DNA of 64,000 nt from Thermodesulfovibrionia bacterium (GCA_030694425.1 JAUXYI010000010.1:18595-82594), one strand, 5' to 3'; shown: positions 8,486 through 63,657, counted from the first letter of the stretch. Notes: a model not told the origin generated them from the letters alone. Program-made: numbers and translations.

Positions 8486-9994
8486 TTATTTTTTCCTTGT
8501 TGCTAATTTATTCAGGGCATTGATATATGCCTTGGCAGCGGCTACAATAATATCAGTATCTGCGCCGTGGCCCCTTACAAATCTGCCGCCCTCTTCAAGT
8601 GAAACCATTACTTCTCCAAGTGCATCAGTCCCGCCTGTTATGCTTTTCACTTCAAATTTAAGTAAAGTGCTTTTTGTGTTTGTTATGGATGCAATTGCCT
8701 TATATGCAGCATCAACAGGCCCGTCGCCTTGTTCGGTCTTCTCTATTATATCTTTGCCAACTTTTATCTTAATCGTTGCAGTAGGTTTCTGGCTCATACC
8801 TGTAACTATATTTAAATCTGCAAGGCTGTAAGCTTCAGGGATTTTTTCAACCTCTTCAGAAATAAGCGCCTCAATATCCTCATCAAATATGTCTTTTTTC
8901 TGGTCAGCAAGTTTTTTAAATCGGTCAAACGCAATATTAAGTTCCTCATCGCTTAATTTGTAGCCGAGTTCATCGAGTCTCGTCTTAAAAGCATGTCTGC
9001 CCGAATGTTTTCCAAGAACGAGTTTTGTCTTGTAAAGACCTACTGTTTCAGGTTTTATAATTTCATAAGTACACTTTTCCTTAAGAAGACCATCTTGATG
9101 TATCCCTGATTCATGCGCAAAAGCATTAGCGCCTACTATGGCTTTATTAGGCTGAACTGATATTCCTGTTATCTTTGTAACGAGCTTGCTGCTGCGCATT
9201 ATCTCCTCTGTTTTAATATTTGTATCAGCATTAAAAACATCTCTCCGTATTCTTAATGCCATCACAACTTCTTCTAATGAGCAGTTACCCGCACGTTCTC
9301 CTATTCCATTGATAGTGCATTCTACCTGCCCTGCTCCGTTAAGCGCTGCTGACAGGGAATTAGCAACTGCAAGCCCAAGGTCATTATGACAATGAACTGA
9401 AATCACTGCTTTATCAATATTTTTTACTCTATCGTGAATTGCTTTTATTAATGCCCCGAATTCAACAGGGATGCCGTACCCTACTGTGTCAGGTATATTG
9501 ACTGTGGATGCGCCTGCATCTATCACGGCTTCTATGACTTCACATAAATAATTAATGTCAGTCCTTGAGGCGTCCATAGGTGAAAATTCCACATCTTCAA
9601 CAAAACTTCTTGCGAGCCTAACCATCTCAACAGACCTTTTCATTGCTTCTTCACGGCTGATGCGGAACTGATACTTAAGATGTATATCAGAAGTAGAATG
9701 AAATGTATGAATCCTTTTTTTAGGAGCATCTTTAACCGCTTCCCATGCCCTTTTTATGTCCTCTTCCTTCGCCCTTGCAAGACTGCAAATTATTGGACCT
9801 TCCACTTCTGCTCCTATGGTTTTTATTGCCTCAAAATCACCGGGAGAGCTGATTGCAAACCCTGCCTCAATAATATCCACTCCAAGACGCGCAAGCTGCC
9901 TTGCAACCTGAACTTTCTCCTCCACATTCATGGAAGCGCCGGGAGACTGCTCGCCGTCCCTGAGTGTTGTATCAAAAATCTTTATTATTCTCAT
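8486..9994 (-). CDS. leuA: 2-isopropylmalate synthase
   Basis: MRIIKIFDTTLRDGEQSPGASM... TIM-barrel HMGL-like fold plus a C-terminal LeuA regulatory domain. Confidence 0.9.
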   Translation of the reverse strand: MRIIKIFDTTLRDGEQSPGASMNVEEKVQVARQLARLGVDIIEAGFAISSPGDFEAIKTIGAEVEGPIICSLARAKEEDIKRAWEAVKDAPKKRIHTFHSTSDIHLKYQFRISREEAMKRSVEMVRLARSFVEDVEFSPMDASRTDINYLCEVIEAVIDAGASTVNIPDTVGYGIPVEFGALIKAIHDRVKNIDKAVISVHCHNDLGLAVANSLSAALNGAGQVECTINGIGERAGNCSLEEVVMALRIRRDVFNADTNIKTEEIMRSSKLVTKITGISVQPNKAIVGANAFAHESGIHQDGLLKEKCTYEIIKPETVGLYKTKLVLGKHSGRHAFKTRLDELGYKLSDEELNIAFDRFKKLADQKKDIFDEDIEALISEEVEKIPEAYSLADLNIVTGMSQKPTATIKIKVGKDIIEKTEQGDGPVDAAYKAIASITNTKSTLLKFEVKSITGGTDALGEVMVSLEEGGRFVRGHGADTDIIVAAAKAYINALNKLATRKK

Positions 9995-10016
9995 ACACTC
10001 TCTTTCAGAGTTTAAA

Positions 10017-10095
10017 ATTGTTCAAGATTGTTTAATGTTGTTCAATATTGAACTATCTTGAACTACCTTAAACTATGTTGAACTTAATTTGTTAA
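10017..10095. promoter_or_regulatory. array of about 10-bp-phased TTGAACTAYC / TTGTTCAA repeats spanning the pssA stop and the leuA upstream region
   Basis: attgttcaagattgtttaatgttgttcaatattgaactatcttgaactaccttaaactatgttgaacttaa shows helical-turn periodicity. Confidence 0.4.
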
Positions 10096-10798
10096 GTTTT
10101 CTCTTCCTGTAAAAAAGCACAGCATTTTCTATAATCCCCCAGAGCATATATGCCATAGAGAAAATAAAAATTACAATCTCTCGGTGCATAAATATAAGCA
10201 CAAGAACAATTACAACTATAACTAAAAGCCAGAAGGGTTTTCTGCTTCTCGGATCAATTTCTTTCAACCCATGATACCGTAATGTGCTGACCATAAGTAT
10301 TGCAAGTAGAAATGGGAATAAAAGTATTACATAGTTCTTCCCTGTTAAAACTCCCCATACCTCATCATAAAATAACACTAAAGAAGCCATTACTGTAGCA
10401 GCCCCTGGTATGGGCATACCCGTGAATGATTTACTCTCTGCAGACCCCATCTGCACATTAAATCTCGCGAGTCTTAATGCCCCGCAAATAACAAACAGAA
10501 ATGCAGCGCCCCATCCAAGACGTCCAAAGGACTGCAAAGCCCAGAGGTAAATAAGAACAGCCGGAGCAATCCCGAATGCAACAAGGTCAGAAAGGGAATC
10601 AAGCTCAATGCCGAATCGTGTAGTGCTGTGGGTTAATCTCGCAACCCAGCCGTCAAGACCGTCAAAGATATTTGCAATCAATATTGCCCATGCGCTGTAA
10701 ATATAGTGACCTTTAAGAGATGCAAGAATGGCATAAAAACCGCAGAACATCCCGCACAGCGTCAGGGTATTGGGTAATAAGTAAATTCCTTTTCTCAT
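10073..10798 (-). CDS. pssA: CDP-diacylglycerol--serine O-phosphatidyltransferase
   Basis: CDP-alcohol phosphatidyltransferase motif DGLDGWVARL in a multi-TM protein. Confidence 0.85.
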   Translation of the reverse strand: MRKGIYLLPNTLTLCGMFCGFYAILASLKGHYIYSAWAILIANIFDGLDGWVARLTHSTTRFGIELDSLSDLVAFGIAPAVLIYLWALQSFGRLGWGAAFLFVICGALRLARFNVQMGSAESKSFTGMPIPGAATVMASLVLFYDEVWGVLTGKNYVILLFPFLLAILMVSTLRYHGLKEIDPRSRKPFWLLVIVVIVLVLIFMHREIVIFIFSMAYMLWGIIENAVLFYRKRKLNKLSST

Positions 10799-10869
10799 AA
10801 AAAACAGTGATGCGTAATCAGTAACAAGTAACGGGAAAAGAATATATGCAGTCTTTAACTCGTCACCAG

Positions 10870-11505
10870 TTACTGTTCACTCGTTACTGCAATTACCGTT
10901 TCTCCTGCTTTTACTTTATCATTCAATTTTACTTTAATTTGAGTATTTAATGGTAGAAATATATCAAGCCTTGAACTGAATTTTATAATCCCGTATCTCT
11001 GCCCCTGTTTAAGCAAATCCCCGTCTTTTACCCTGCAGACAGCACGCCTTGCAATAAAACCTGCTACCTGCCTCACCACTATCTTTCCGTGCTCAGTCTC
11101 AAGCAGCATTGTTATATGTTCATTCTGTAATGATGATTCTTCTTTAAATGCAGCAAGAAATTTTCCGGGATAATGCTTTACATCTTTTACAACACCATTA
11201 CACGGCGCCCTGTTGACATGCACATCAAAAGGTGACATAAAAATACTTACTTCAAGCGCTTTTTCGTTTAACAGTTCATTCTCAACGGTTTCCTTTATAA
11301 GAATAACCTTGCCGTCTGCCGGAGAATAAAATGCATTTTTGTTTTCAGTGGTAATCCTTTCCGGGTCCCTGAAGAAAAAAAACATGAACAGCAGAAGCAC
11401 AAGCGGAACTGCAACCATCCATGGTTTTCCAAAGACTGCAGTTATTACTGCTGCCAGAGCAAATATGAAGAAAAATGGATAACCTTCAGGTGCGAATTTA
11501 AACAT
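10870..11505 (-). CDS. psd: phosphatidylserine decarboxylase (short archaeal-type)
   Basis: FMSPFDVHVNRAPCNG and the C-terminal GETVIAVTS are typical of the short Psd proenzyme. Confidence 0.8.
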   Translation of the reverse strand: MFKFAPEGYPFFFIFALAAVITAVFGKPWMVAVPLVLLLFMFFFFRDPERITTENKNAFYSPADGKVILIKETVENELLNEKALEVSIFMSPFDVHVNRAPCNGVVKDVKHYPGKFLAAFKEESSLQNEHITMLLETEHGKIVVRQVAGFIARRAVCRVKDGDLLKQGQRYGIIKFSSRLDIFLPLNTQIKVKLNDKVKAGETVIAVTSEQ

Positions 11506-11606
11506 TATACCGGTAACAAGTAATACGTGATGAGTAAGGAGTTATAAGAGAAGATTTATTTTGGAAATAATAATTCATACTTGTCACTCGTCACTTGTTA
11601 CTGTTT

Positions 11607-12760
<1,154 letters not shown>

Positions 12761-12762
12761 TT

Positions 12763-13251
12763 TTACGCCTTTTTCACTCCTTCTCTTGCCATTGCAACTT
12801 TACCAGTCCGGACAAATTCTTTTATCCCGTAACCCTTCATAAGCTCAACAAATGCCTCTATTTTTTTCTCATCGCCTGTAATCTCAATTGTAAAAGTTTT
12901 AGGTCCTGAATCCACTATTCTTCCTCTGAAAATTTCTGCAAGCCTCAACACTTCAGTCTTATCTTCTTTCTTAGGGGCAACCTTTACAAGCACCATTTCC
13001 CTCTCAACGTGGTCAACCTCCATGAAATCAACAACCTTGATGACATCAATAAGTTTATTGAGCTGCTTGGTTATCTGCTCAATAATCTGGTCGTCACCAG
13101 TTGTGACTATTGTCATAATGGATATCTGCGGGTCTATGGTCTCTCCGACAGAGAGGCTTTCAATATTATAGCCCCTTCCGCTAAAAAGTCCTGATATCCT
13201 TGAAAGAACCCCGAATTTGTTTTCAACAAGAACTGAAATTGTATGCCTCAT
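12763..13251 (-). CDS. ilvN: acetolactate synthase small (regulatory) subunit
   Basis: ACT-domain start [35 protein letters not shown]. Confidence 0.9.
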
Positions 13252-13264
13252 CTTTCTCCTTCGG

Positions 13265-13355
13265 AAAATTCAAAAATTAAAATTTAAAATGCAAAATTAA
13301 GAAATTTATTATTAAATTTTTTTCTTCCATAATTTTGATTTTTGAGTTTTGCATT
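13265..13355. repeat. AT-rich AAAATGCAAAAT / GTTTTGCATTTT inverted-repeat element
   Basis: Lies between ilvB and ilvN. Confidence 0.6.
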
Positions 13356-13359
13356 TTCT

Positions 13360-15096
13360 TTATTTCACTGCTCTAACTTTTTTCTCTTCTTTTTTTTCTT
13401 CCTCAAACAGCATCTCATCTATTGAGGCACCTGCGGGAACCATAGGATAAACTTTCTCTCTCCAGTCAACAACAAAGTCCATAAACACGGGTTTGTCTTT
13501 TACCTTGAGCGCCTCTCTTAGAACAGGCTCTACCTCTTCAGGTTTTGTTGCCCTCAGTCCGACAGCATTGTATGCCTCTGCCACTTTCACAAAATCAGGC
13601 ACCACGTCAAGATAGGTGTGTGAATAACGCTCTCTGAAAAATAACTCCTGCCACTGTCTTACCATCCCCAGATAATGGTTATTAAGTATTGCAACCTTAA
13701 CCGGCAGTTTATTTATAACAGCAGTTGCAAGCTCCTGTATGTTCATCTGAATACTGCCGTCGCCAGCTATATCTATAACCAAATCATTAGGGCATGCAAA
13801 CTGTGCTCCGATTGCAGCAGGGAAACCAAACCCCATCGTGCCAAGACCGCCTGAAGACAGAAATCTCCTTGGTTTATCATATTTATAAAATTGCGCAGCC
13901 CACATCTGATTCTGCCCCACCTCTGTACAGATTATTGCATTGCCTTTTGTCAACTCGTATATCTTCTCAATAACAAATTCGGGTTTAATGATTTTTTCAT
14001 CATATCTGTACGTAAGGGGTCTTTCCTTTTTCCACTGCTCCATCTGCTTTAACCATGATTTCCTTATCGCACTCCACTGTTCTTTTCCAACTTCTTCCTT
14101 AAGAATTTTCAATATCTCCTTTAATACCAGCTTTACATCCCCGACTACAGGCACATCAACTCTTACGTTTTTTCTTATTGAGGTCGGGTCAATATCTATA
14201 TGAACTATTTTTGCATTAGGCGCAAAAGACGCTGTCTTTCCGGTCACGCGGTCGTCAAATCTCACACCAATGCCTATCAACAAGTCTGCATTCTGAACAG
14301 CCATGTTGGCATAATATGTCCCGTGCATGCCAAGCATTCCCAGAGATAAATTATGTGTTCCGGGGAATCCGCCAAGACCCATAAGCGTCATTGTTACGGG
14401 TATATCCATAAACTCTGCCAGTTCTTTAAGTTCTTTTGAAGCTCCGGATAGAATCACGCCGCCGCCTGCCATAATAACAGGTTTTTTAGCGCGTGCTATC
14501 TCATGCGCTGCCTGCTTTATCATCCATTTATTGCCTTCATAAGTCGGGTTATAGCTTCTTATTTGTATGTGCTGGGGCCATATAAAATCAGTTTTGCCTG
14601 CTGTTACATCCTTTGGTAAATCAATCAAAACAGGGCCTGGTCTGCCTGTTGATGCAATATAAAATGCTTCTCTCACTGTTTTGGCAAGGTCATTTATATC
14701 TTTAACAAGATAATTATATTTCGTACACGGCCTTGTTATTCCTACGATGTCAGCTTCCTGAAAGGCGTCATTGCCTATTAACATTGTCGGCACCTGTCCT
14801 GAAAACACAACAATTGGCACTGAATCCATTGAAGCATTGGCAATACCTGTAACAGTATTAGTTGCGCCGGGCCCTGATGTAACAATAGCCACGCCTACTT
14901 TTCCGCTTGCCCTCGCATAACCGTCTGCAGCATGTACAGCGCCCTGTTCATGTCTTGTAAGGATAAGTTTTATGTCTTTTTCATCATAGAGGGTGTCAAA
15001 AATATTGAGGACCACACCTCCGGGATAGCCAAAGATGTGCTTTACCCCCTCTCGCTTTAAACATTCAACTAATATTTCAGCGCCGCTTTTTTTCAT
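13360..15096 (-). CDS. ilvB: acetolactate synthase large subunit
   Basis: [27 protein letters not shown]... ThDP/FAD enzyme. The first 54 codons of the track ORF are repeat-derived ([10 protein letters not shown]), so the start is set at 15096. Confidence 0.9.
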
Positions 15097-15120
15097 CTGT
15101 TCTCCATTTCTTTGCAAGGT

Positions 15121-15184
15121 GTCATTCCGAGCGAAGCGAGCAATCTCATGGAGATTGCTTCGGTCATAACGACCTCGCAATGAC
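15121..15184. repeat. GTCATTCCGAGCGAAGCGAG...CTCGCAATGAC palindromic repeat
   Basis: Lies in the ilvD-ilvB gap. Confidence 0.7.
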
Positions 15185-15194
15185 AATACTATTT

Positions 15195-16850
15195 TCAAAT
15201 TTTCATTATAGCCCCTGTACTTGCTGATGTAGCAAAGGCAGCGTATCTGGCAAGCCATCCTGTATTAATCTTGGGCTTAGGAGGCTTCCATGATGCAAAC
15301 CTTTTCTTCATTTCCTGATTGCTAATAAATATATCTATTTTTCTTTTTGGAATATCTATGTTTATTATATCCCCGTTTTTCACAATGGCAATAGGTCCTC
15401 CTTCCATTGCCTCAGGAGATATATGTCCGATGCACAGCCCTCTTGTGCCGCCGGAGAAACGGCCGTCTGTAATCAATGCTACTGATTCACCCAGCCCCAT
15501 GCCCGCAATAGAAGCGGTTGCGTTCAACATCTCCCTCATGCCAGGGCCGCCTTTAGGCCCTTCATAACGTATAACTACAACATCGCCTGCCTTAATTTTG
15601 TCGGCAAGGATTGACTTCATCGCATCCTCCTCTGACTCAAACACCCTTGCCCTGCCTCTAATCGTTAACATCTTATTAGTTACAGCTGTTTGTTTTACCA
15701 CAGCTCCATCCGGAGCAAGATTGCCTTTTAAGACAGCTATACCGCCCTCTTTATGATATGCCTGGTTAAGCGGCCTTATCACTTCTGAATTAACAATATC
15801 AGCATTATCCGCTATATCATAAATTTTTTTGCCTGATACCGTCAGGGCATTATTAAGTTTTGGTTTTAATCTCTTCAGCACAGCAGGAATACCGCCTGCA
15901 TATTCAAGGTCCTCAAGGTAATCTGTTCCTCCGGGAAGCATGTTAGCAATATGAGGGGTATCCTTACTTATTCTATCAAACATCTCAAGAGACACGAATA
16001 TCCCCGCTTCATGGGCAATCGCAGGAATATGTAAAACAGTATTTGTAGAGCCGCCAAGAGCCATATCAACTCTTATGGCATTCTCAAATGCCTTTGGCGT
16101 TAAAATTTTTCTGGGAGTAATGTTTTTCTTTACAATCTCCACTATCCTTACTCCGCTGTGAAAAGCTATCCTGCGTTTTTTTGATGAAACAGCAAGAGAT
16201 GTTGCGCACTCCGGAAGACTCATGCCCAGCGCCTCGGTTACACAAGCCATTGTATTTGCCGTGTACATTCCCTGGCATGAACCCGGACCAGGACATGCAC
16301 ACACCTCAAGCTCTGCCATTTCTGCGTCGCTTAACAGCCCTTTCTTGTATTTCCCTATTGCCTCAAATGTATCGTTTACAAGGGAAAGTCTCCTGCCCCG
16401 GAGATTGCCGGCAAGCATAGGACCTGCAGTCACAACAATAGACGGCACATTTACCCTTGCTGCTGCCATAAGCATTCCAGGGGTAATCTTGTCGCAGTTC
16501 GTAAGAAGCACCAATCCGTCAAACTGATGCGCTTCAGCAATCGTTTCAACCATATCCGCTATGAGCTCCCTTGATGGCAGACTGTAATGCATTCCCCTAT
16601 GCCCCATTGCAATGCCGTCACAGATGCCGGGTATGCCAAAAAAAAACGGGTAGCCGCCGCCAGTATGAATCCCCTTTTCTATAAACCTTTCAAGGTCACG
16701 CATGCCGATATGCCCGGGAATAATATCAGTAAAACTTGTAGCAACTCCTATAAACGGCTTGTTCATCTCCGTGCGAGGCATTCCCGTGGCATACAGCAAT
16801 GCCCTGTGCGGCAATCTTTCTACACCTTTTTTAATTAAATCGCTTTTCAT
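15195..16850 (-). CDS. ilvD: dihydroxy-acid dehydratase
   Basis: 551 aa ILVD/EDD family protein, [24 protein letters not shown]. Confidence 0.9.
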
Positions 16851-16868
16851 TTAAAATATTCCTAATTT

Positions 16869-16939
16869 GTCATTCCGAGTGAAGCGAGGAATCTCGTCTT
16901 TAAAGATTGCTTCTGCCGAAACTTCGGCATCGCAATGAC
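16869..16939. repeat. GTCATTCCGAGTGAAGCGAG...CATCGCAATGAC palindromic repeat
   Basis: Lies upstream of ilvD. Confidence 0.7.
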
Positions 16940-16975
16940 ATTTTAATTGTTATCTGCGCTATAGACTTTCAACTT

Positions 16976-17203
16976 TTAACTTTTCACTTTTTGCCTGTAT
17001 TCCCTTATAAGCTCTGCCATACGGTCCTTCTTGAGCAGTTTTTGTTTCTGGAGCTTTTTTCTTTCTATTTCTTCTTCAGGGGTCAGATATTTATTTTTGT
17101 CCATCTCTGCAAGTATACGGTCAAGCTCTTTATGTCCTTCATGTAGTTTTTTATATTCTTCATTTTCCTTTTTTAAAATTTCTGCTATTTCAGAGTCTTT
17201 CAA
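16976..17203 (-). CDS. DUF465 (YdcH-like) small coiled-coil protein
   Basis: 75 aa, ...KLHEGHKELDRILAEMDKNKYLTPEEEIERKKLQKQKL... Confidence 0.6.
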   Translation of the reverse strand: MKDSEIAEILKKENEEYKKLHEGHKELDRILAEMDKNKYLTPEEEIERKKLQKQKLLKKDRMAELIREYRQKVKS

Positions 17204-17743
17204 TAATAGTCCCTCCTCTCTTTTTAACCCAAAATTCGTTAAAATTAAAATATTAAATTAAGTAGTTCTGGGAAATGTCTGCCTTATTTGGTTCAAAGGA
17301 GAAATTATCATATTTTCGCCAAAAAAACAAGTTTTTGTATAACTCATAAGCGGGAACAAGACAGACAGGTCAGGATTCAAAGGGTTTTAAAATGCTTTCA
17401 CCTAAGATGCCTGCCTATATGAAAGTCAAATGTAGATTTGCAAACATTGATTGCAGATTATGGCAAATTGGAAGGGGTCGTGAGGCAAAAAAAGCTAACA
17501 TTTTAATTTTCTGAAAAAATCTATTTTGCTATCTCATCTGCCCATAGCCAACGTTCTTTGACTTCTAATTGTCTTGAGAGTCTTTCTAAAAATTCTTCAC
17601 TTTTTTGATTAAAACCTGTTTCTACGATTTTCCACCACTTCTTACTTGAACCTTTTTCGGCAAAAAGATCAGTCATTGGATAAATATAAACTACAATGCC
17701 CTGAAGTTTCTTCTCTATCCAAACGGTAAAAGGGAATCTTTTA

Positions 17744-19156
17744 CTATCTTTTCCATAATAAAACTTTTAGCCCTGTGTAAAACAATATAAAATATTTCCT
17801 TAATGATAAACCTTGAAGCTTGAGAATTCTTCTTATTATGTAAGATGGTCTTAAATAAAATCTTTTATATGCTTTTCTTATACATTCTTTCAGTTCCTCT
17901 TGTGTTCTCCCATATGGAATATATGTAGGATAGTCATATAATGTAGCTTTATGTAACTCATCTTTGAGGATAGTCCCATATTGAGAGCATAATTTATAAA
18001 AGGCTTCTCCAGATATATGAGGTATTGTAAGGCTAATTTGAACATAATCAGATTCTATTTCTATAGCGAACTTAATGGTTTGTTCTGATTCCTCACGAGT
18101 TTCCCCTGGAAGTGCCAACATGTAAGAGCAGATAGTCTCTATTCCTGCTTCTTTAGCTAACTTTATAGAGATACGAGCTTGGTCTAATGTAATGCCCTTA
18201 TTAATTAAATTTAAAAGACGTTGTGAACCAGATTCTATCCCATAATAAATCTGATAACAACCAGCTTCTTTAAGTTTTCTAAGTATTTTCTCATCTACCA
18301 AATCTACACGTGTGAAACAAGACCAAGGAAGATTTAAATTCTCGGCATTAAGAAGATCACAGAATTCATATACCCATTTTTTATTTACTGTAAAAGAATC
18401 ATCCCAAAACCTTATACTGTCAGCACTATACTCTTCTTTTAGAATTCGCATCTCTTCAACAACTCGTTTTGGACTGTGATACCTGACGGTTCTCCCAAAA
18501 GACTGTTGGATCCAACAAAAAACACATTTAAAAGGACAACCTCTTGAGGCTATCATGCTTAATGTCCTTATACCTCTTAAATGAGAAGTAGCATGATATT
18601 TATTCATAGGGAAAAGATGTTTTGCAGGAAAAGGAAGGATATCCAAATTCTCTATGAAAGGTTGTGGTTTATTTTTAATTATATTCTTCCCATCTTTCCA
18701 GACAATACCTGGCACTCCTGAAAAATCAACCCCATTTTGTAGGCAATCTAAAAGGTTCTTCATTACAAATTCACCTTCACCATAAACACCAAAATCTATA
18801 CTTTCATCTCTAATTGTTTCTTCTGGATACATTGTAATATGAGAGCCACCTAATACCACTTTAATGTCTGGATTTATTCTTTTAGCAATTTTAGCTATCT
18901 TATAACAGGACTCTAAATTGCTGAAAATAGTTTGTTGCCCTACAATATGGGGAGAAAAATCTCTTGTTACTCTTTCAATATCATCAAAATTTGACTTGGT
19001 AACAACAGCATCTATTACCTTTACCTCATGTCCATCTTTTTCTAAAAAAGCGGCAACGTATGCTAATCCTAAAGGGAAATATGGCTGAATTGAGGTATTA
19101 AATTTTCCAAATCCTTCTTTCCATGAACTTGGAGGTACTACAAGCAAAACCCTCAT
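17744..19156 (-). CDS. B12-binding (class B) radical SAM enzyme, substrate unknown
   Basis: An N-terminal B12-binding domain (MRVLLVVPP...GLAYVAAFLEKDGHEVKVID) is followed by a radical SAM core with RGCPFKCVFC. The AAGGAG RBS favours a start at 19156. Confidence 0.75.
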   Translation of the reverse strand: MRVLLVVPPSSWKEGFGKFNTSIQPYFPLGLAYVAAFLEKDGHEVKVIDAVVTKSNFDDIERVTRDFSPHIVGQQTIFSNLESCYKIAKIAKRINPDIKVVLGGSHITMYPEETIRDESIDFGVYGEGEFVMKNLLDCLQNGVDFSGVPGIVWKDGKNIIKNKPQPFIENLDILPFPAKHLFPMNKYHATSHLRGIRTLSMIASRGCPFKCVFCWIQQSFGRTVRYHSPKRVVEEMRILKEEYSADSIRFWDDSFTVNKKWVYEFCDLLNAENLNLPWSCFTRVDLVDEKILRKLKEAGCYQIYYGIESGSQRLLNLINKGITLDQARISIKLAKEAGIETICSYMLALPGETREESEQTIKFAIEIESDYVQISLTIPHISGEAFYKLCSQYGTILKDELHKATLYDYPTYIPYGRTQEELKECIRKAYKRFYLRPSYIIRRILKLQGLSLRKYFILFYTGLKVLLWKR

Positions 19157-19197
19157 TTTAGAACTTCTCCTTCTTCTTAGATTAATTAATGCCACGG

Positions 19198-19299
19198 CCC
19201 AGTAGGCAATGGAATACCACCTTCACCACCGCTACCTCCTCCATAGGAAGTCAATACCACTGCAAGCAAGAGAAACAATGGCGTTAGAATTGATAAACA
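19198..19299 (-). other. possible small ORF in the radical SAM 1 / radical SAM 2 spacer, in frame with and immediately after the upstream TGA
   Basis: Own translation gives ...LFLLLAVVLTSYGGGSGGEGGIPLPTGPWH*. It has no ATG; only TTG or GTG starts are available. Confidence 0.15.
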
Positions 19300-20886
19300 T
19301 CAACCTTTTTTAAACAAAGCAGGTTGTGTTTTTTTAAGCAAGGCTAACCTTTCACCGTATTTCAAATCTTTTTCGCCAAGATAGTTGTAGAGAAGTTTCG
19401 ATATTGCAGACCCCCAGTTGCCAAGAACCGTTCTTATAGTCCATGCAATATTGTAATTTAATGCCCTTGTGGTAATAAAAAAATACACAGTCGGTTCAAT
19501 AGTCCTTTTGACTATAAAAAATAAACTGTTTACTAATAATAAATGGAGTAGTTTTCTGGATTTCTTTGGCTTATTTAAATACCTTGTAATAATTCGAGGT
19601 ATATATGGGGTCATGTAAAGCAGTTTATTAAAATATGTTTTATCAATCTTAACCATGTACCTTGTAAGATAGGCTTCAGGGTCAATAATATTGTCTTTAA
19701 CAGCCTTTTCAGTTAGAGGAGTTCCCTGGAAAAATGTCAGATGAGCTAACGAAATTGCATAAGGCCTTTTTAGCCTTGCCATAGAATCTATAGTCTCCAT
19801 CTGGTCTTCCTCTGTCTCATAAGGGTTGTCCACTATCATTTCGTAAAACGGAGCTGCCTTTGTTTCAGCAACTATCCTTGCTGCATTTATAACCGATGAG
19901 AAGCTAACATTTCTCTCATAAACCTCAAAATTGACGCGGTCGCTTCCACTTTGAACACCCATGACAACCCAGCTCAACCCTGCCCCTCTGAGCAGAAATA
20001 TTTTTTCTCTGTCGAGGTTAGAAGGATATACACGAACCATAAAAGGCAGATTTATATACCTCTTGTATTCATTGCAGAATCTTCTAATCCACTCATGGCT
20101 ATGGATAAAAAACGAGTCATCCTCAAAATTTATATACAGAACATATTGGTCCTTTTTTACCTCCTTTAACTCTTTTATACAGTTCTCAACTGATCTTTCT
20201 CTAACCTTCTTTCCATAGATGGTCATAAGGTAAGAGTTAGCACAATATCCACAATGGAAAGGACAGCCTCTTGATGTTATCATCATGTGGCAGGTACCTC
20301 CGTACAGAGCATACTGGCGGAACAAACGTGGATTTTGTGCAAAATTATATATCTTATTTTTGTGAAAACCGTAAAAATAATCAGGCAGGTACTCCTGCAA
20401 TGGAAGGCTGTCAAGATTCATTTCAGGAGGAGCCATGGATTGTCTTAATATCTTTCCGTTATCATTTACCCATATGTTAGGAATTTCAGGTGGGATACTC
20501 TTATCTTTATCCTTTAGATGCTCTAATAACGAAACAACAACTCTTTCTCCTTCTCCACAGCATATATAGTCAGCATACTTTATACATTCATTCGGCCTGA
20601 TTACTACATGCACTCCACCCCATATTATCGGTATCTGAAACTTTTCACGAAGAAGGAATGTAAGGTTTTTTGCCGGGTAAAACTCGATAGACATAAGCCC
20701 TATTCCAATTAAATCAGGACTATAATCAAGGATAAAGTCTTCCATCGCAGGAGCCAATATCCGCTCAAAATAGCCTGGAAGAAGTAATATACGGGCATCA
20801 TGACCATTAGCCAACACATTAGCTGCTATGTACTTAAGCCCTGTAACATAAGCATTAGACTGTAAAGAAATCAGTAATAATCTCAT
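19300..20886 (-). CDS. B12-binding (class B) radical SAM enzyme, substrate unknown
   Basis: MRLLLISLQ... B12-binding domain and SRGCPFHCGYC. It is a paralogue of the downstream gene. Confidence 0.75.
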   Translation of the reverse strand: MRLLLISLQSNAYVTGLKYIAANVLANGHDARILLLPGYFERILAPAMEDFILDYSPDLIGIGLMSIEFYPAKNLTFLLREKFQIPIIWGGVHVVIRPNECIKYADYICCGEGERVVVSLLEHLKDKDKSIPPEIPNIWVNDNGKILRQSMAPPEMNLDSLPLQEYLPDYFYGFHKNKIYNFAQNPRLFRQYALYGGTCHMMITSRGCPFHCGYCANSYLMTIYGKKVRERSVENCIKELKEVKKDQYVLYINFEDDSFFIHSHEWIRRFCNEYKRYINLPFMVRVYPSNLDREKIFLLRGAGLSWVVMGVQSGSDRVNFEVYERNVSFSSVINAARIVAETKAAPFYEMIVDNPYETEEDQMETIDSMARLKRPYAISLAHLTFFQGTPLTEKAVKDNIIDPEAYLTRYMVKIDKTYFNKLLYMTPYIPRIITRYLNKPKKSRKLLHLLLVNSLFFIVKRTIEPTVYFFITTRALNYNIAWTIRTVLGNWGSAISKLLYNYLGEKDLKYGERLALLKKTQPALFKKG

Positions 20887-20930
20887 GGTTTAAATATTTT
20901 CCTTTCTAAAATAGCCGCCACTGTATTGTG

Positions 20931-20946
20931 AGCAACAACTATGCCA
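20931..20946 (-). promoter_or_regulatory. sigma-54 (-24/-12) promoter TGGCATAGTTGTTGCT upstream of the tandem radical SAM genes
   Basis: On the minus strand GG and GC are separated by 10 nt, matching TGGCAC-N5-TTGCW. It lies about 45 nt upstream of the 20886 start and directly downstream of the sigma-54 activator gene. Confidence 0.6.
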
Positions 20947-21145
20947 CAATTATGAAATTGTTTTATTATCCTTTAAAAACAAGAAGGCAGATAAAAATGA
21001 TTGCGCTCTTTAAAGTTATAGGGGGTGCAACAGAACTTTACGAAGAATTTGATAAAAAAGAGTAACTTCTGCTGAGATAAAGATTTTTTGGTATGCAAGA
21101 ATTCTTTACTGATATAAAAAACGTTGCAGTCTTTTTAGATGGGAC

Positions 21146-22561
21146 CTATGAGGATTTGGCTCTTCTCTTTAATCGCTGATTAAGTGCCTGACGTGTAATA
21201 CCTAAAAGGGATGCTGCAATCCCTTGATTGTCGTTTGCGCGCTTTAGCGCCTCGGATATAAAATAGTCTTCAACTTCTTTTAGGGTAGGAAAATGTCCGG
21301 AAAGGCTGATACCATAGGTTACATCTTGGGTTGTAGGCAACAGAATCGTTTGAGTACGTGAACGTCCTTCTTTTATAAATTCCTTAAAACTCTCTAAGGG
21401 AAGCATTCCTGATTCATGCTGCGCAACAGCATCAAAGACCATTGCCTGAAACTCACGGACATTTCCGGGATAGTTATAGTTAGAAAGCAACGTTGTAAGT
21501 TCAGGAGGAGGTGTAGGTTTTTTCTTTTTCATAGACCTTGCTGCATCATTTAGGAAATGGTCAAGTAATAAAGAGACGTCTTCAAGTCGTTCGCGAAGAG
21601 GTGGAATATGAATATGATGGGTACAAAGCCGAAAATATAAATCTCTGCGGAACTTTCCTTCTGATATCTGCTTTTGGACGTCATGATTGGAGATGGCAAC
21701 AATGCGTGTATTACTCTTCATGGGAATATCCGAACCGAGGGAATAATACATTTTTTCCTCTAACAAACGTAAGAGTTTAACCTGTGATGATTCGTTCAGG
21801 TCGCCGATTTCATCAAGAAGCAAGGTACCCCCGGATGCCTTAACAATCAGCCCCTCTCTTTCCACGTCTGCTCCAGTATATGCACCTTTTTTATGGCCGA
21901 ACAGGGCATCAGAAAACATAGTATCATCTAACCCGGCTACATTCACTGCAACAAACGATCCTTTAAGTCCGCTCGCCTGGTGTATTGACCTTGCGATTAA
22001 CTCTTTACCAACCCCTGTTTCTCCTGTAATAAAAACAGGTTTCTGGGATCTCGCAACGGCTTCAATGTAATGGAAAATGGCCCGCATCTTTTTGCTGTTT
22101 GTAATAATCAGGGAAAAAATATCTCCATGCTCCAGCTGGTCTGTAAGGAGATGCTGTTTTAGGGAGTTAACCTCATTGTGTAAATCCCTCAATTCCAGAA
22201 CCTTCTGTATACAAGAGATAAAGTGATTTTCTTCCACTGGTTTTACAAGATAATCCGATGCACCGGCCTTCATACTCTCTACAGCCTTTTCTACTTCATT
22301 TACTGCAGTCATGACAATAACCGGAATATGGGGAAAATCATTCTTGATCTTGGGAAGCAGTTCGATCCCTGAAATGTAGGGTATGATCAAGTCTAATACA
22401 ATTAATGCAACATCCTGTTTTTCAAGAAAGGGTAGAACCTCCCTGCTGTCCTTCAAGGTTAAAACATATTTAATTCCAGCGCTGCGGAGCGTTAAGCTGT
22501 AACTGAGTAAGATCTGCTCCTCGTCGTCTACGAGAAGTATGGGGAGTGAAGAATCGCTCAT
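21146..22561 (-). CDS. sigma-54-dependent response regulator (NtrC family: REC, AAA+, Fis-type HTH)
   Basis: REC (ILLVDDEEQILL...D), Walker A GETGVGKE, GAYTGA motif and a C-terminal HTH, AASLLGITRQALNQRLKR. Confidence 0.85.
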   Translation of the reverse strand: MSDSSLPILLVDDEEQILLSYSLTLRSAGIKYVLTLKDSREVLPFLEKQDVALIVLDLIIPYISGIELLPKIKNDFPHIPVIVMTAVNEVEKAVESMKAGASDYLVKPVEENHFISCIQKVLELRDLHNEVNSLKQHLLTDQLEHGDIFSLIITNSKKMRAIFHYIEAVARSQKPVFITGETGVGKELIARSIHQASGLKGSFVAVNVAGLDDTMFSDALFGHKKGAYTGADVEREGLIVKASGGTLLLDEIGDLNESSQVKLLRLLEEKMYYSLGSDIPMKSNTRIVAISNHDVQKQISEGKFRRDLYFRLCTHHIHIPPLRERLEDVSLLLDHFLNDAARSMKKKKPTPPPELTTLLSNYNYPGNVREFQAMVFDAVAQHESGMLPLESFKEFIKEGRSRTQTILLPTTQDVTYGISLSGHFPTLKEVEDYFISEALKRANDNQGIAASLLGITRQALNQRLKRRAKSS

Positions 22562-24090
22562 TTTAAACTATATACGGGGAGCCTCACTACAGCGGTTGTC
22601 CCCTTCCCTGGTTCTGATTCAAATTGCAGCATTCCGTTATGCTCCTTAATAATGGCATAGGAGATTGAAAGCCCCAGTCCTGTGCCTCCACTTTTAAGTT
22701 TTGTAGTAAAAAAAGGCTCTGTGATGCGCTCAAGAATATCCCCGGACATTCCGATACCTTCGTCTCTTACCTGTATTACCACATTGTCCTCTTTTTTACT
22801 AAAACAAGCAGATACCCAGACCCCACAATGCTTATCCGGTAATGCCTGCAATGAATTCATAATAAGATTGATAAGCACCTGCTCTATCTGCTGGGGATTT
22901 CCTCTTATAATCGGAACATCTTCCTCACAGGTGATGTTGAAATTATCGGTATACTGCTTAATCTGATTACCGAGAATGGTTATAGAGCCCTTAATAACCT
23001 TGCTGATGTCTACCTCATTAACTATGCTGGCTTTGTCCGGACGGGCAAAATCCCTCAAGTTGTCAACTATACTCTTAATCCTGAAGGCGCCATCATTTAT
23101 CCCTTTAAGCAGTTTTGGCATAACCTCACACACTTCCGAAAAAGGAAGTCCTCCCGGAGAAAAATTCTCATTATCCTGATAATATTCTTCAAGGATCTTG
23201 ATGACATCTCCCCAGACCTTAGAAAGCAAGTTGGAATTGGATATAATAAAACTATTCGGATTATTAATCTCATGGGCAATACCAGAAACAAGGGTACCCA
23301 GGGCAGTCATTTTGTTTGCTTGAATCAATTTTACCTGCATGAGTTTAGCCTCTTTTTCCATGCGGACCTTGGCAGTGATCTCTCTCGCTAACTCTATTAC
23401 GCTTTTTACCCTCCCGGTTTCATCTTTTATGGGGAATGCCCTTACATCCCAGACCCTTCCATCAGGGGTTGAAATCTCGCCTGTTTCCTCTTCCCCTGTG
23501 CGAAGACTTCTCATTGATGGATAGTTATCGTCTAAAGGAGATTTGCATATGCTAAAACAATATTGTCCTGTAAGTTCGGGGATATCTTTACCAAATGCAG
23601 AAGCAGCAGCTTTATTTGCCCACATTATTTTTAGATCAGGGGATAGGAGGACTAAGTTGTCAGGGATGGCATCAAGCAGGGCATTGAATTCCTGCTTTCG
23701 TTCAGTGATGTCACGACCGACAGCATATATCAAACCTTCATTAATATCTGAATAGGAAGTCCACGCCAGCCATTTAAAAGAACCATCTTTACAGAGATAC
23801 CGATGTTCACAATATATAACAGGCATGCCATCGCTCAAACTCTGCAATTCAGTGCGGTTGCTTTCACGGTCTTCGGGATGAACAAATTCATAAAACGGTT
23901 TTGCAAGAATTTCCTCTTTAGAGTATCCAAGTGTCCTCTCGAATGCAGGATTTACAAGCTTAAAATAACCATCCAATCCCGCAATACAGAGCATATCGTT
24001 TGAAAGGTTAAAAAAGTGCTCATATATTTTTTTTCTTAGGCCACGCTTTTTCTCCAAGGCTTTAAGTTTAGCAGTTCGTTGCTTAATCAT
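22558..24090 (-). CDS. PAS-domain sensor histidine kinase
   Basis: Two PAS-like regions, an H-box HEINNPNSFI, and a G2 box GGTGLGLSISYAII. It overlaps the response regulator gene by 4 nt. Confidence 0.85.
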   Translation of the reverse strand: MIKQRTAKLKALEKKRGLRKKIYEHFFNLSNDMLCIAGLDGYFKLVNPAFERTLGYSKEEILAKPFYEFVHPEDRESNRTELQSLSDGMPVIYCEHRYLCKDGSFKWLAWTSYSDINEGLIYAVGRDITERKQEFNALLDAIPDNLVLLSPDLKIMWANKAAASAFGKDIPELTGQYCFSICKSPLDDNYPSMRSLRTGEEETGEISTPDGRVWDVRAFPIKDETGRVKSVIELAREITAKVRMEKEAKLMQVKLIQANKMTALGTLVSGIAHEINNPNSFIISNSNLLSKVWGDVIKILEEYYQDNENFSPGGLPFSEVCEVMPKLLKGINDGAFRIKSIVDNLRDFARPDKASIVNEVDISKVIKGSITILGNQIKQYTDNFNITCEEDVPIIRGNPQQIEQVLINLIMNSLQALPDKHCGVWVSACFSKKEDNVVIQVRDEGIGMSGDILERITEPFFTTKLKSGGTGLGLSISYAIIKEHNGMLQFESEPGKGTTAVVRLPVYSLK

Positions 24091-24251: not shown

Positions 24252-25664
24252 TTGATAATGACAAAAATATACAAAGAAGATAGTCACAAATTGAAGCCTT
24301 TCCTCATAGACTCTCACTGCCATCTTGATATGGATGTCTTTGACAATGACAGAAGAGAAGTCATTAAGCGCGCCCAAGATGCATGTGTTAAGCATATAAT
24401 CAATATAGGCTCTGACAGAAAAGGGAATATAAAGAGTTTAAAAATCTGCCATGATTATCCTGAAATTTACACATCAGTCGGCATCCATCCTCATGATGCA
24501 AAAACTCTAAATGAAGAGCTTTATGCTGAAATAAAAGAGTGGTTAAAACAGCCAAAAGTTGTTGCCATAGGTGAAATCGGTCTTGATTATCACTATATGC
24601 ACTCTCCCAGAGAAACTCAAATAGACGCCTTTAAAAAGCAAATAGCCATAGCAAAAAATTCAGGTCTTCCTATTATAGTTCACAGCAGAGAAGCAAAAAA
24701 TGACACTATGCAGATACTCAAGGAGGACGCAACTAAGATTTCAGGCGTTCTGCATTGCTTTTCCGGGGATATGGACATGGCTAAAAAGGCTATGGAACTC
24801 GGATTCTACATATCAATTGCAGGACCGGTTACATTCAGCAATGCAAAAAATCTAAGGGAGGTTGCTAAATTTATCCCTGATGAGTATCTCCTCATAGAAA
24901 CAGATGCCCCATATCTAAGCCCTGTGCCAATGAGAGGCAAGAGGAATGAGCCTTCTTTTGTTAAATACACTGCTCAGGCAATTGCAGACCTGAGAGGCGT
25001 AGGCATCTCTGATATAGCAAGGATTACAACACTGAATGCAATGAAGCTTTTTAAACTCGGTCAGATTCCTGACAAAGGAGAAATAGCTTACAAAATCAGA
25101 GATTCACTTTATCTGAATATTACAAACAGATGCACTAACAGATGCGGGTTTTGCATAAGATTTGAGACAGACTATGTAAAAGGGCACAACCTGCGCCTTG
25201 AAAAAGAACCTTCAGCAGAGGAAATAATCAAATCAATAGGCAACCCGAACTTATATAAAGAAATTGTCTTCTGCGGTCTCGGCGAACCCCTTTTAAGACT
25301 TGATGTTGTTAAAGAGGTATCCGCATGGGTTAAACAAAAAGGCGGTAAAGTCAGGATAAATACAAACGGTCATGGCAATTTAATTCACGGAAGAAACATA
25401 CTCCCTGAGCTTCAGGGCATTGTAGACAGCCTCTCAATCAGCCTCGATGCCGAGGATGAAAAAAAATATGAAGACATCTGCAAGCCTGTTTATAAAAATG
25501 CCTTCCAGTCTGTTATCTCGTTTATAAAAGAAGCCAAGAGATATATCCCAGAAGTAAAAGTTACGGTCGTAAAATTACCAGAGATTGATATTGAAAAATG
25601 CAGGGCTATTGCTGAAGAGTTAGGGGTGGAACTAAGAGTAAGGGAGTTTAATGTGGTTGGGTAA
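24252..25664 (+). CDS. fusion protein: TatD-family metal-dependent hydrolase plus TatD-associated radical SAM-like domain
   Basis: Residues 1-260 are TatD-like (IDSHCHLD...HSRE...ETDAPYL). The C-terminal 200 aa carry CTNRCGFC (CxxxCxxC) and FCGLGEPLL. Confidence 0.7.
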   Translation: MIMTKIYKEDSHKLKPFLIDSHCHLDMDVFDNDRREVIKRAQDACVKHIINIGSDRKGNIKSLKICHDYPEIYTSVGIHPHDAKTLNEELYAEIKEWLKQPKVVAIGEIGLDYHYMHSPRETQIDAFKKQIAIAKNSGLPIIVHSREAKNDTMQILKEDATKISGVLHCFSGDMDMAKKAMELGFYISIAGPVTFSNAKNLREVAKFIPDEYLLIETDAPYLSPVPMRGKRNEPSFVKYTAQAIADLRGVGISDIARITTLNAMKLFKLGQIPDKGEIAYKIRDSLYLNITNRCTNRCGFCIRFETDYVKGHNLRLEKEPSAEEIIKSIGNPNLYKEIVFCGLGEPLLRLDVVKEVSAWVKQKGGKVRINTNGHGNLIHGRNILPELQGIVDSLSISLDAEDEKKYEDICKPVYKNAFQSVISFIKEAKRYIPEVKVTVVKLPEIDIEKCRAIAEELGVELRVREFNVVG

Positions 25665-62719: not shown

Positions 62720-62964
62720 AAAAATATATTAGCTCAAAAACTTATGGACAGGCAAGAATTAATAAATAGTTTGTCGGAATTCCTTACATAAATTTAAGAA
62801 ATCCTCTGAAAAACTCATAAAAATGTCTGAAAAACTTTACACTTAATCTTTTTTATATCCCCCCCTAAAAAAAATCAATAAAATCAATATATTATAATTT
62901 GGCATGGGATTTGCATATTAAGTTAATTAAAAATAATTTAATAAAAGGAAAGGAGGTGAAAAAG

Positions 62965-63657
62965 ATGAAAAAGAAATTTCTGACAGGTTTGTTAACAACA
63001 TTGTTTTTACTTGCAACGGTAGGCATGTCCAATGGTGTTATCGTTGACTTCGCTGGTGGCACGGCAACATTAAACGATGGCACTACTGTTGTCACAACAA
63101 ACACAGGACTTTGGAATAGTATAGTAGATTACTATGTGGAAGATGGAATAAAAGTAGATTTCATCGGTGGTTACGGGACTATCGGAGATTACTATTCAAT
63201 AGGTAGCGGAACGGGAGGAGGCCCCCCTTATGAAAATAGCGTAATCCATGCCCATCTATTTACTGATATTTCTGTATTTTTCTCAAAGGTGGATAGTTCA
63301 TCGTTCGATCTCAATTATGTAGATATGACCTCAAACACTGAGGTAGGCGGTGACCTGGCAACTGGGGAACGAAATATCATGGATCACGGCATCAAACGGT
63401 TACTCGATGCTCTTACCCTCGTCCGACTGGGGACTTGACTATACTTATTTTGGTAATCCAGGTGACGGTATTCAAAGGCTATGGCTTGATAGTAATTTCG
63501 ACAGTATTACTTCCTTTACACTGACTTCACAGAATGCATATTGCTTTGGAATGGACAATTTCTATATTGATGAGCCGCCACCACCCCAACAACCTTGCTT
63601 CTTCTTGGCAGTGGATTAATAGGGCTGGCAGGGATTAGAAAAAAGTTTAAGACTTAA
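62965..63657 (+). pseudogene. PEP-CTERM-anchored secreted protein, reading frame broken twice
   Basis: An RBS AAGGAGG precedes an ATG at 62965 and the signal peptide MKKKFLTGLLTTLFLLATVGMSNG. Frame 1 stops at 63438, and frame 2 runs 63350-63619. Frame 1 resumes after the C-run ccaccaccccaacaacc, giving DEPPPP-TTLLLLGSGLIGLAGIRKKFKT*, a PEP-CTERM sorting signal. Confidence 0.5.

Follow-up and report, generated by a model that had tools for sequence, protein, structure and literature searches.

We analyzed a gene cluster in a 64-kb stretch of DNA (the window, meaning the whole stretch of 64,000 nucleotides [nt] that was examined) from an uncultured member of the Thermodesulfovibrionia (Nitrospirota; GCA_030694425.1, JAUXYI010000010.1:18595-82594). 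The cluster comprises four open reading frames (ORFs), all on the minus strand. A histidine kinase gene (22558-24090, 510 residues) is followed by the gene for an NtrC-type response regulator of the sigma-54 activator class (21146-22561, 471 residues) and, beyond a gap of 259 nt (20887-21145), by two genes encoding class-B, or cobalamin (B12)-binding, radical S-adenosylmethionine (SAM) enzymes, here termed rSAM1 (19300-20886, 528 residues) and rSAM2 (17744-19156, 470 residues). A sequence-only reading of the same DNA had described these genes as a two-component, sigma-54-controlled operon, and the four ORFs were recovered with the strand, coordinates, and domains that it had assigned.

Results

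Sensor kinase and regulator

Pfam matches and sequence motifs define the kinase as a protein with two PAS domains (PAS1 and PAS2), a HisKA domain with the H-box AHEINNP, and a HATPase_c domain; no transmembrane region was noted. Its stop codon is overlapped by 4 nt by the regulator gene. The regulator, assigned from Pfam, NCBIfam, and its sequence, contains Response_reg (85 bits), Sigma54_activat (184 bits), AAA_lid_14, and HTH_8 (28 bits) domains. The acidic pocket and Asp of the receiver are present, along with a Walker A motif (GETGVGKE), the sequence LLLDEIGD, and a GAYTGA loop, so that the protein has the hallmarks of an NtrC-type bacterial enhancer-binding protein (a receiver Asp, an AAA+ domain with Walker A/B motifs and loop, and HTH_8). 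The regulator reached none of the curated equivalog cut-offs of NCBIfam, the best match being AtoC (328 versus a cut-off of 714 bits). Its family is common in Nitrospirota and numbers more than 120 clusters at identities of at least 60%; the helix-turn-helix (HTH) regions were near-identical in the 12 members inspected, and the recognition helix was almost unchanged across them.

The predicted sigma-54 promoter region

The gap between the regulator gene and rSAM1 contains the sequence TGGCATAGTTGTTGCT (20931-20946, minus strand), which has the form TGGCAT-N5-TTGCT, an exact -24/-12 element of the sigma-54 type (consensus, TGGCAC-N5-TTGCW) with its GG and GC 10 nt apart. The element ends 44 nt before the rSAM1 ATG (20886), in agreement with the earlier description of a textbook element about 45 nt ahead of the first radical SAM gene, and that ATG has a purine-rich ribosome-binding site (RBS). 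Exact matches to TGGCAYN5TTGCW number two in the 64-kb window versus 0.19 expected, and 2 of 100 shuffled sequences reached that count. Both are intergenic, on the coding strand, and 44-50 nt before a start codon, and on account of these positions both look like working promoters. The second exact match, TGGCATGGGATTTGCA (62900-62915, plus strand), precedes by 50 nt the ATG of a gene that starts at 62965; this gene has a strong RBS, its product carries a signal peptide and matches nothing in Pfam, and it has a reading frame that appears to shift near 63350-63440.

Recurrence of the sigma-54 box beside rSAM2 orthologues

Orthologues of rSAM2 are few, with only ~10 clusters at identities of at least 59%; the next relatives (~50%) are from assorted phyla. 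In three other Nitrospirota lineages an orthologue (60-67% identity) was found with a sigma-54 box. In L007/L008 (67% identity) the box TGGCATAAAGATTGCT is followed by a 34-residue membrane peptide, a small lipoprotein-like ORF, and rSAM2. In L062/L063 (60%) the box TGGCAAGGATAATGCA is followed by a peptide of the same 34-residue type, rSAM2, and a 174-residue secreted protein, and in L144 (61%) the box TGGCACAAAGGTTGCA precedes the peptide, a 177-residue secreted protein, and rSAM2. Activators homologous to the window regulator lie upstream of the box in two of the three lineages, L062/L063 and L144. The box was absent from two further lineages that have rSAM2 orthologues (L004/L005 and L146). 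Conservation of the element in orthologous loci, which had been named as a test, gave a mixed picture: the element is present upstream of rSAM2 orthologues in three other lineages and absent in the two just named, and no strong box was seen upstream of the rSAM1 orthologues that were checked (see below). In the first of the two box-less lineages (L004, 6437-11407, and L005), the rSAM2 orthologue (61%) sits directly behind a gene for a 355-residue radical SAM protein and ResB-CcsA (cytochrome c biogenesis system II), a single case that may hint at a link to heme or cytochromes.

As a negative control we used ~75 distant rSAM2 homologues (28-47% identity) from a metagenome scan with the rSAM2 alignment, a set collected with overly general peptide patterns and serving this purpose only. 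No box was present within 600 nt upstream of any of them, and an NtrC-type activator was nearby in only one case (L124, where the activator is a 36% homologue on the opposite strand). These results bear on the possibility that the box in the window is a chance match, with the two-component system acting on targets elsewhere and the radical SAM genes being constitutive. Sigma-54 motifs with one mismatch occur in the window at the chance level (8 versus 5.1 expected), a weak sigma-70-like match overlaps the region, and the regulator family is far more widespread than rSAM2, so that most of its members must control something else. The element in question, however, has the exact consensus, on the right strand and at the right distance, in a 259-nt gap directly after an activator gene, and box and homologous activator recur together with rSAM2 orthologues in independent lineages and with none of the ~75 distant homologues. 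We therefore consider such an incidental adjacency highly improbable.

One-component activators in the sister lineages

The activators that adjoin the rSAM2 orthologues of L062 (8178-9653, 491 residues) and L144 (325-1842, 505 residues) have the architecture PAS-AAA+-HTH. From the linker to the C-terminus they are 63-64% identical to the window regulator, and their N-terminal PAS domain shares 61-62% identity with PAS1 (residues ~12-138) from the kinase of the window. When 122 close members of the regulator family were ranked by core similarity, the cores of the two activators came 21st and 94th; because they nest inside the family in this way, they are derived members in which the sensor domain of the kinase has replaced the receiver. 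These loci offer a clear case of two-component and one-component forms having interconverted while the target was retained. The two-component format of the earlier description is not a fixed one: a one-component PAS activator can take its place.

Candidate activator-binding sites

Alignment of the region between the activator stop codon and the box revealed three blocks that may bind the activator. The first, a TGCAAC half-site (21123-21128, minus strand), lies about 182 nt upstream of the box and has palindromic counterparts at similar positions, TGCCAC-N4-GTTGCA in L144 (-194/-184) and TGCAAC-N4-GTTTCA in L062 (-185), compared with -182 in the window. The second, TTGCATACC followed by a run of A (21090-21098, minus strand), corresponds to TTGCATATCAAAAAAA in L144 and is part of a block, TTGCATAyCAAAAAA, that is common to the window and L144. 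The third, GTTGCACCCC (21022-21031, minus strand), is 85 nt upstream of the box; the identical 10-mer occurs in L144 at -96, and GTTGCAC occurs in L062 at -124. The TGCAAC/GTTGCAC blocks are suggestive only as candidate activator sites, with two shared 7-mers versus 0.49 expected and 52 of 500 shuffles doing as well (p ~0.1).

Small proteins behind the box

The 34-residue peptide, which would span the membrane once, is encoded immediately after the box in each of the three sister lineages (L007, 146-250; L062, 9913-10017; L144, 2158-2262) and has the consensus ...W-x-x-I-S-[SG]-M-S-[KR]-x-[DE]-x-P-x-C-G-x-T. Pfam searches with the small ORFs of these loci and the 177-residue protein gave nothing significant; a lipocalin-like match had E = 0.06. 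A conserved small ORF at this position, with more small ORFs flanking rSAM2 there, brings to mind the maturation of a ribosomally synthesized and post-translationally modified peptide (RiPP), in which rSAM2, perhaps together with rSAM1, would modify a small peptide such as the one ending in P-x-C-G-x-T. RiPP maturases (ApyD and TIGR03975) are also among the sub-threshold NCBIfam matches. The 34-residue peptide, however, resembles a single-pass membrane anchor and not a leader-core precursor, it has no Pfam match and is absent from the window, and no gene for a protease, a transporter, or a RiPP recognition element is near the locus. We regard a RiPP-like system as very unlikely.

The two radical SAM enzymes

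Both enzymes have the N-terminal PF02310 domain and the radical SAM core with a CxxxCxxC motif that characterize class B. Scores for B12-binding (PF02310; Pfam cut-off, 32.1 bits) and Radical_SAM (cut-off, 29.5 bits) were 44.4 and 60.9 bits for rSAM1 and 87.8 and 98.4 bits for rSAM2. The CxxxCxxC cysteines are invariant in rSAM2 and, as Cys208, Cys212, and Cys215, in the rSAM1 family; rSAM1 has three additional invariant cysteines (Cys101, Cys109, and Cys199) and an extra C-terminal extension of ~110 residues that is helical and partly hydrophobic.

Assignment of either enzyme to a characterized family was attempted with NCBIfam profiles, PDB sequence searches, and AlphaFold models compared by Foldseek, and it was rejected, the searches giving only a generic class-B fold; the prediction that neither would fall into a known family thus stood. 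No curated NCBIfam cut-off was reached. The best curated matches (HpnJ, BchE, ApyD, HpnR, PhpK, and TIGR04072) gave alignments of nearly full length with scores far below the cut-offs. For HpnJ (TIGR03471; cut-off, 577.6 bits) the scores were 234.6 bits for rSAM2 and 55.1 for rSAM1; for BchE (TIGR02026; 481 bits), 196.7 and 73.2; for the hopanoid C-3 methylase HpnR (TIGR04367; 650 bits), 131.8 and 44; and for the ladderane-associated lipid B12 radical SAM family (TIGR04072; 360 bits), 147.9 and 117, respectively. Against ApyD rSAM2 scored 212 (cut-off, 750), and against TIGR04013 rSAM1 scored 98 (cut-off, 251). For HpnP, Grs, and Tes no PDB sequence match to either enzyme was found, and the profile libraries searched hold no models for them; the PDB sequence matches that were obtained are remote.

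The AlphaFold models, with pLDDT values (predicted local distance difference test) of 91 and 85, gave as top PDB fold matches MgmA (9ccb), AprD4 (6fd2), TsrM (6wte), CysS (9n1b), OxsB (5ul4), and TokK (7kdx) at 14-22% identity. These share the Rossmann-type B12-binding domain and the partial TIM-barrel, with template-modeling (TM) scores of about 0.6-0.75. In contrast to them, rSAM1 has the additional C-terminal helical domain and the three extra cysteines, and the substrate-binding regions are not comparable to those of the solved class-B structures. We conclude that rSAM1 and rSAM2 represent class-B radical SAM subfamilies not yet described, within a known superfamily and under a conventional type of control. 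Full-text literature searches for B12 radical SAM enzymes together with Nitrospirae, Thermodesulfovibrio, or sigma-54 returned nothing relevant.

Relationship between rSAM1 and rSAM2

The two enzymes had been described as a paralogous, duplicated pair. They are only 25% identical and fall into separate subfamilies that differ in distribution and gene context, and other genomes hold many relatives of each that are far closer; a recent duplication was therefore rejected as their origin, and at this identity the term "paralogous" applies at the superfamily level and no further. The 143-nt spacer between the genes (19157-19299, minus strand) contains no terminator-like hairpin, sigma-54 box, or second promoter, which makes co-transcription likely, and the rSAM2 ATG at 19156 has a strong RBS. 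Within the spacer a Gly-rich frame, LFLLLAVVLTSYGGGSGGEGGIPLPTGPWH, runs to a stop and lacks both an ATG and an RBS; it is similar to the small lipoprotein-like ORF (235-381) that precedes the rSAM2 orthologue in L007 and may be a decayed small ORF.

The rSAM1 family

The rSAM1 subfamily has more than 120 clusters at identities of at least 63% (63-75%), found so far in Nitrospirota, often with two or more copies per genome, and rSAM1 itself belongs to the "first-of-pair" clade (clade A) of a neighbor-joining tree of the family. Its closest relatives (72-75% identity) are flanked on one side by a divergent Rrf2-TusA-IscS-NifU unit and on the other by a convergent gene for a ~345-residue protein without a Pfam match, SAM_HAT, and pyrD, and they often lead a tandem pair of true paralogues. 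Such tandem pairs (for example, the CP070632 locus L002/L037, L001, L011, L020, and L038) resemble the window in that a member of the same subfamily (61-75% identity) is usually the first gene; they differ in that the partner is a true paralogue, the promoter is a sigma-70 type (TTGACT-N17-TATAAT), and neither a sigma-54 activator nor a box was found beside them.

About 17 lead genes of the rSAM1 family have a sigma-70 promoter of the form TTGAC-N16-19-TAnAAT, mostly TTGACT-N17-TATAAT. An unusually well conserved form, TTGACT-N16-17-TATAAT, is located 40-120 nt before the rSAM1-type gene in L001-L003, L006, L010, L011, L016, L020, L026, L037, L038, L041, L044, L050, and L053. Inspection of ~60 rSAM1-family genes (51 GTDB loci and others) yielded no good sigma-54 box, the GG-N10-GC matches in L022 (TGGAACAGTCGCTGC), L001 (inside the sigma-70 promoter), and L018 being weak or atypical. 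Because the rSAM1 orthologues that were checked lack a strong sigma-54 box and about 17 lead genes have sigma-70 promoters instead, rSAM1 appears to be a later recruit to a sigma-54/rSAM2 module that already existed. Conservation of the order kinase-regulator-rSAM1-rSAM2, which had been proposed as a check, was not seen in any other species sampled.

These findings can also be taken to mean that the sigma-54 promoter and regulator are real and have rSAM2 alone as their target, rSAM1 being a recently translocated passenger that shares no pathway with it. The different gene context of the rSAM1 orthologues, the sigma-70 promoters of the lead genes, the restriction of sigma-54 boxes to rSAM2 orthologues, and a four-gene order seen in no other sampled species would all fit. 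On the other hand, rSAM1 is intact, has its own RBS, and starts exactly 44 nt after the box. Moreover, a further B12 radical SAM gene lies within 2.5 kb of about half of the rSAM1-family genes. This partner can be a paralogue from the same family, a third type with divergent transcription, or an rSAM2-like gene (35-37% identity, in L045 and L061), and such habitual pairing argues for cooperation. On balance a passenger role for rSAM1 is unlikely.

Neighboring genes

Downstream of rSAM2, a spacer of ~900 nt (about 16851-17743) contains two small ORFs (16976-17203 and 17521-17676, both minus strand), one of 75 residues that is DUF465-like (E = 0.02) with a TTG start and strong RBS, and one of 51 residues with no match; neither was found beside rSAM2 orthologues. 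Beyond it is an ilvD-ilvB-ilvN-ilvC ... leuA-leuC-leuD cluster (8486-16850, minus strand), in which genes for a phosphatidylserine decarboxylase (psd, 10870-11505) and a CDP-alcohol phosphatidyltransferase (10073-10798) sit between ilvC and leuA. Upstream of the kinase gene and divergently transcribed is a single ORF of 470 residues (24252-25664, plus strand) that fuses a TatD nuclease domain (residues 19-268) to a "TatD-associated radical SAM" domain (TIGR04038, residues 277-466); TatD nuclease and TatD-associated radical SAM protein are usually encoded by two adjacent genes. These neighbors (the branched-chain amino acid genes, psd, the CDP-alcohol phosphatidyltransferase gene, and the TatD fusion) provide no pathway clue for the enzymes, and no hopanoid, bacteriochlorophyll, or phosphonate genes are near the locus. 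An Rfam scan of the window gave one tRNA only, with no riboswitch (e.g. for cobalamin) near the operon, and the window ORFs that were scanned included no rpoN.

Discussion

On the basis of the gene content, the promoter match, and the conservation of box and activator with rSAM2 across lineages, we interpret the locus as a signal-controlled, sigma-54-dependent transcription unit, with a probability of roughly 0.6. The signal-responsive sigma-54 switch put forward by the sequence-only reading remains the best account of these data. The comparisons support a regulatory link for the promoter, regulator, and rSAM2, which at the sequence level appears to be lineage-specific for rSAM1. In the mechanism that we envisage, the cytoplasmic PAS kinase would sense a cue, probably an intracellular one (redox or a metabolite), and would phosphorylate the receiver Asp of the regulator. 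The regulator would oligomerize on the TGCAAC/GTTGCAC sites located some 85 and 182 nt upstream of the promoter and, using ATP, would open the sigma-54 closed complex at TGGCAT-N5-TTGCT, yielding a single transcript that spans rSAM1 and rSAM2. NtrB/NtrC, AtoS/AtoC, and ZraS/ZraR share with this locus the translational coupling of a REC-AAA+-HTH_8 activator to a kinase that is cytoplasmic or of the PAS type, and a downstream -24/-12 promoter with upstream sites (candidate ones here) about 80-190 nt away. The present system differs from them in the GAYTGA loop of its regulator and in the fusion of the sensor PAS domain to the activator in sister lineages.

Several observations weigh against this interpretation. 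Promoter activity is predicted here from the sequence; a weak sigma-70-like match (9/12) overlaps the TGGCATAGTTGTTGCT box region; and the candidate upstream sites are statistically weak. The regulator loop is GAYTGA instead of GAFTGA, a variant also present in L144 and many family members, and the regulator family (>120 clusters) is more than 10 times as widespread as the rSAM2 orthologues (~10 clusters). The 34-residue membrane peptide is missing from the window, two lineages with rSAM2 orthologues have no box, and the ~17 rSAM1-family lead genes have sigma-70 promoters. As for the chemistry, none of the comparisons identified a substrate, cobalamin binding is predicted, and the top structural match of rSAM2 is AprD4, which shares a class-B-like fold but is a diol dehydratase and not a methylase.

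The evolution of the locus may be pictured as follows. An ancestral module would have consisted of the regulator, the upstream sites, the sigma-54 promoter, the membrane peptide, and rSAM2; two of the three lineages also have a secreted protein of ~175 residues. Direct fusion of the sensor to the activator would have taken place in some lineages, whereas the window has the two-component form and lacks the membrane peptide. rSAM1, driven elsewhere by sigma-70, would have been placed first behind the promoter in the window lineage.

With low confidence, we suggest that the enzymes use cobalamin to methylate or rearrange a common hydrophobic envelope substrate, such as a lipid or a lipid-linked molecule, at unactivated carbons. 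This suggestion draws on three weak observations: in the sister loci rSAM2 is accompanied by a membrane peptide and by a secreted protein that gave a weak lipocalin-like match, the C-termini of both enzymes are amphipathic, and genes of the rSAM1 family habitually occur beside another B12 radical SAM gene. A more far-reaching proposal, which we think unlikely, is that the regulator, box, 34-residue peptide, ~175-residue secreted protein, and rSAM2 form a hitherto undescribed, signal-induced envelope-remodeling system in Nitrospirota, and that the widespread rSAM1 family, with its constant tendency to acquire a second B12 radical SAM partner, is a new class of C-methylases or cross-linkers acting on lipids (or lipid-anchored molecules), here under sensory control.

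Nothing in these results overturns current knowledge, and we view the locus as a good lead rather than a surprise. It shows two clear evolutionary events, namely the interconversion of two- and one-component regulation with the same target and the apparent capture of a constitutive sigma-70 gene by a sigma-54 promoter. No substrate is known for thousands of class-B radical SAM enzymes, and where a subfamily is linked to its own conserved sensory switch, that switch offers an experimental handle on the product. Given its conservation and multiple copies across Nitrospirota, the rSAM1 family probably has an important role in the physiology of these uncultured organisms.

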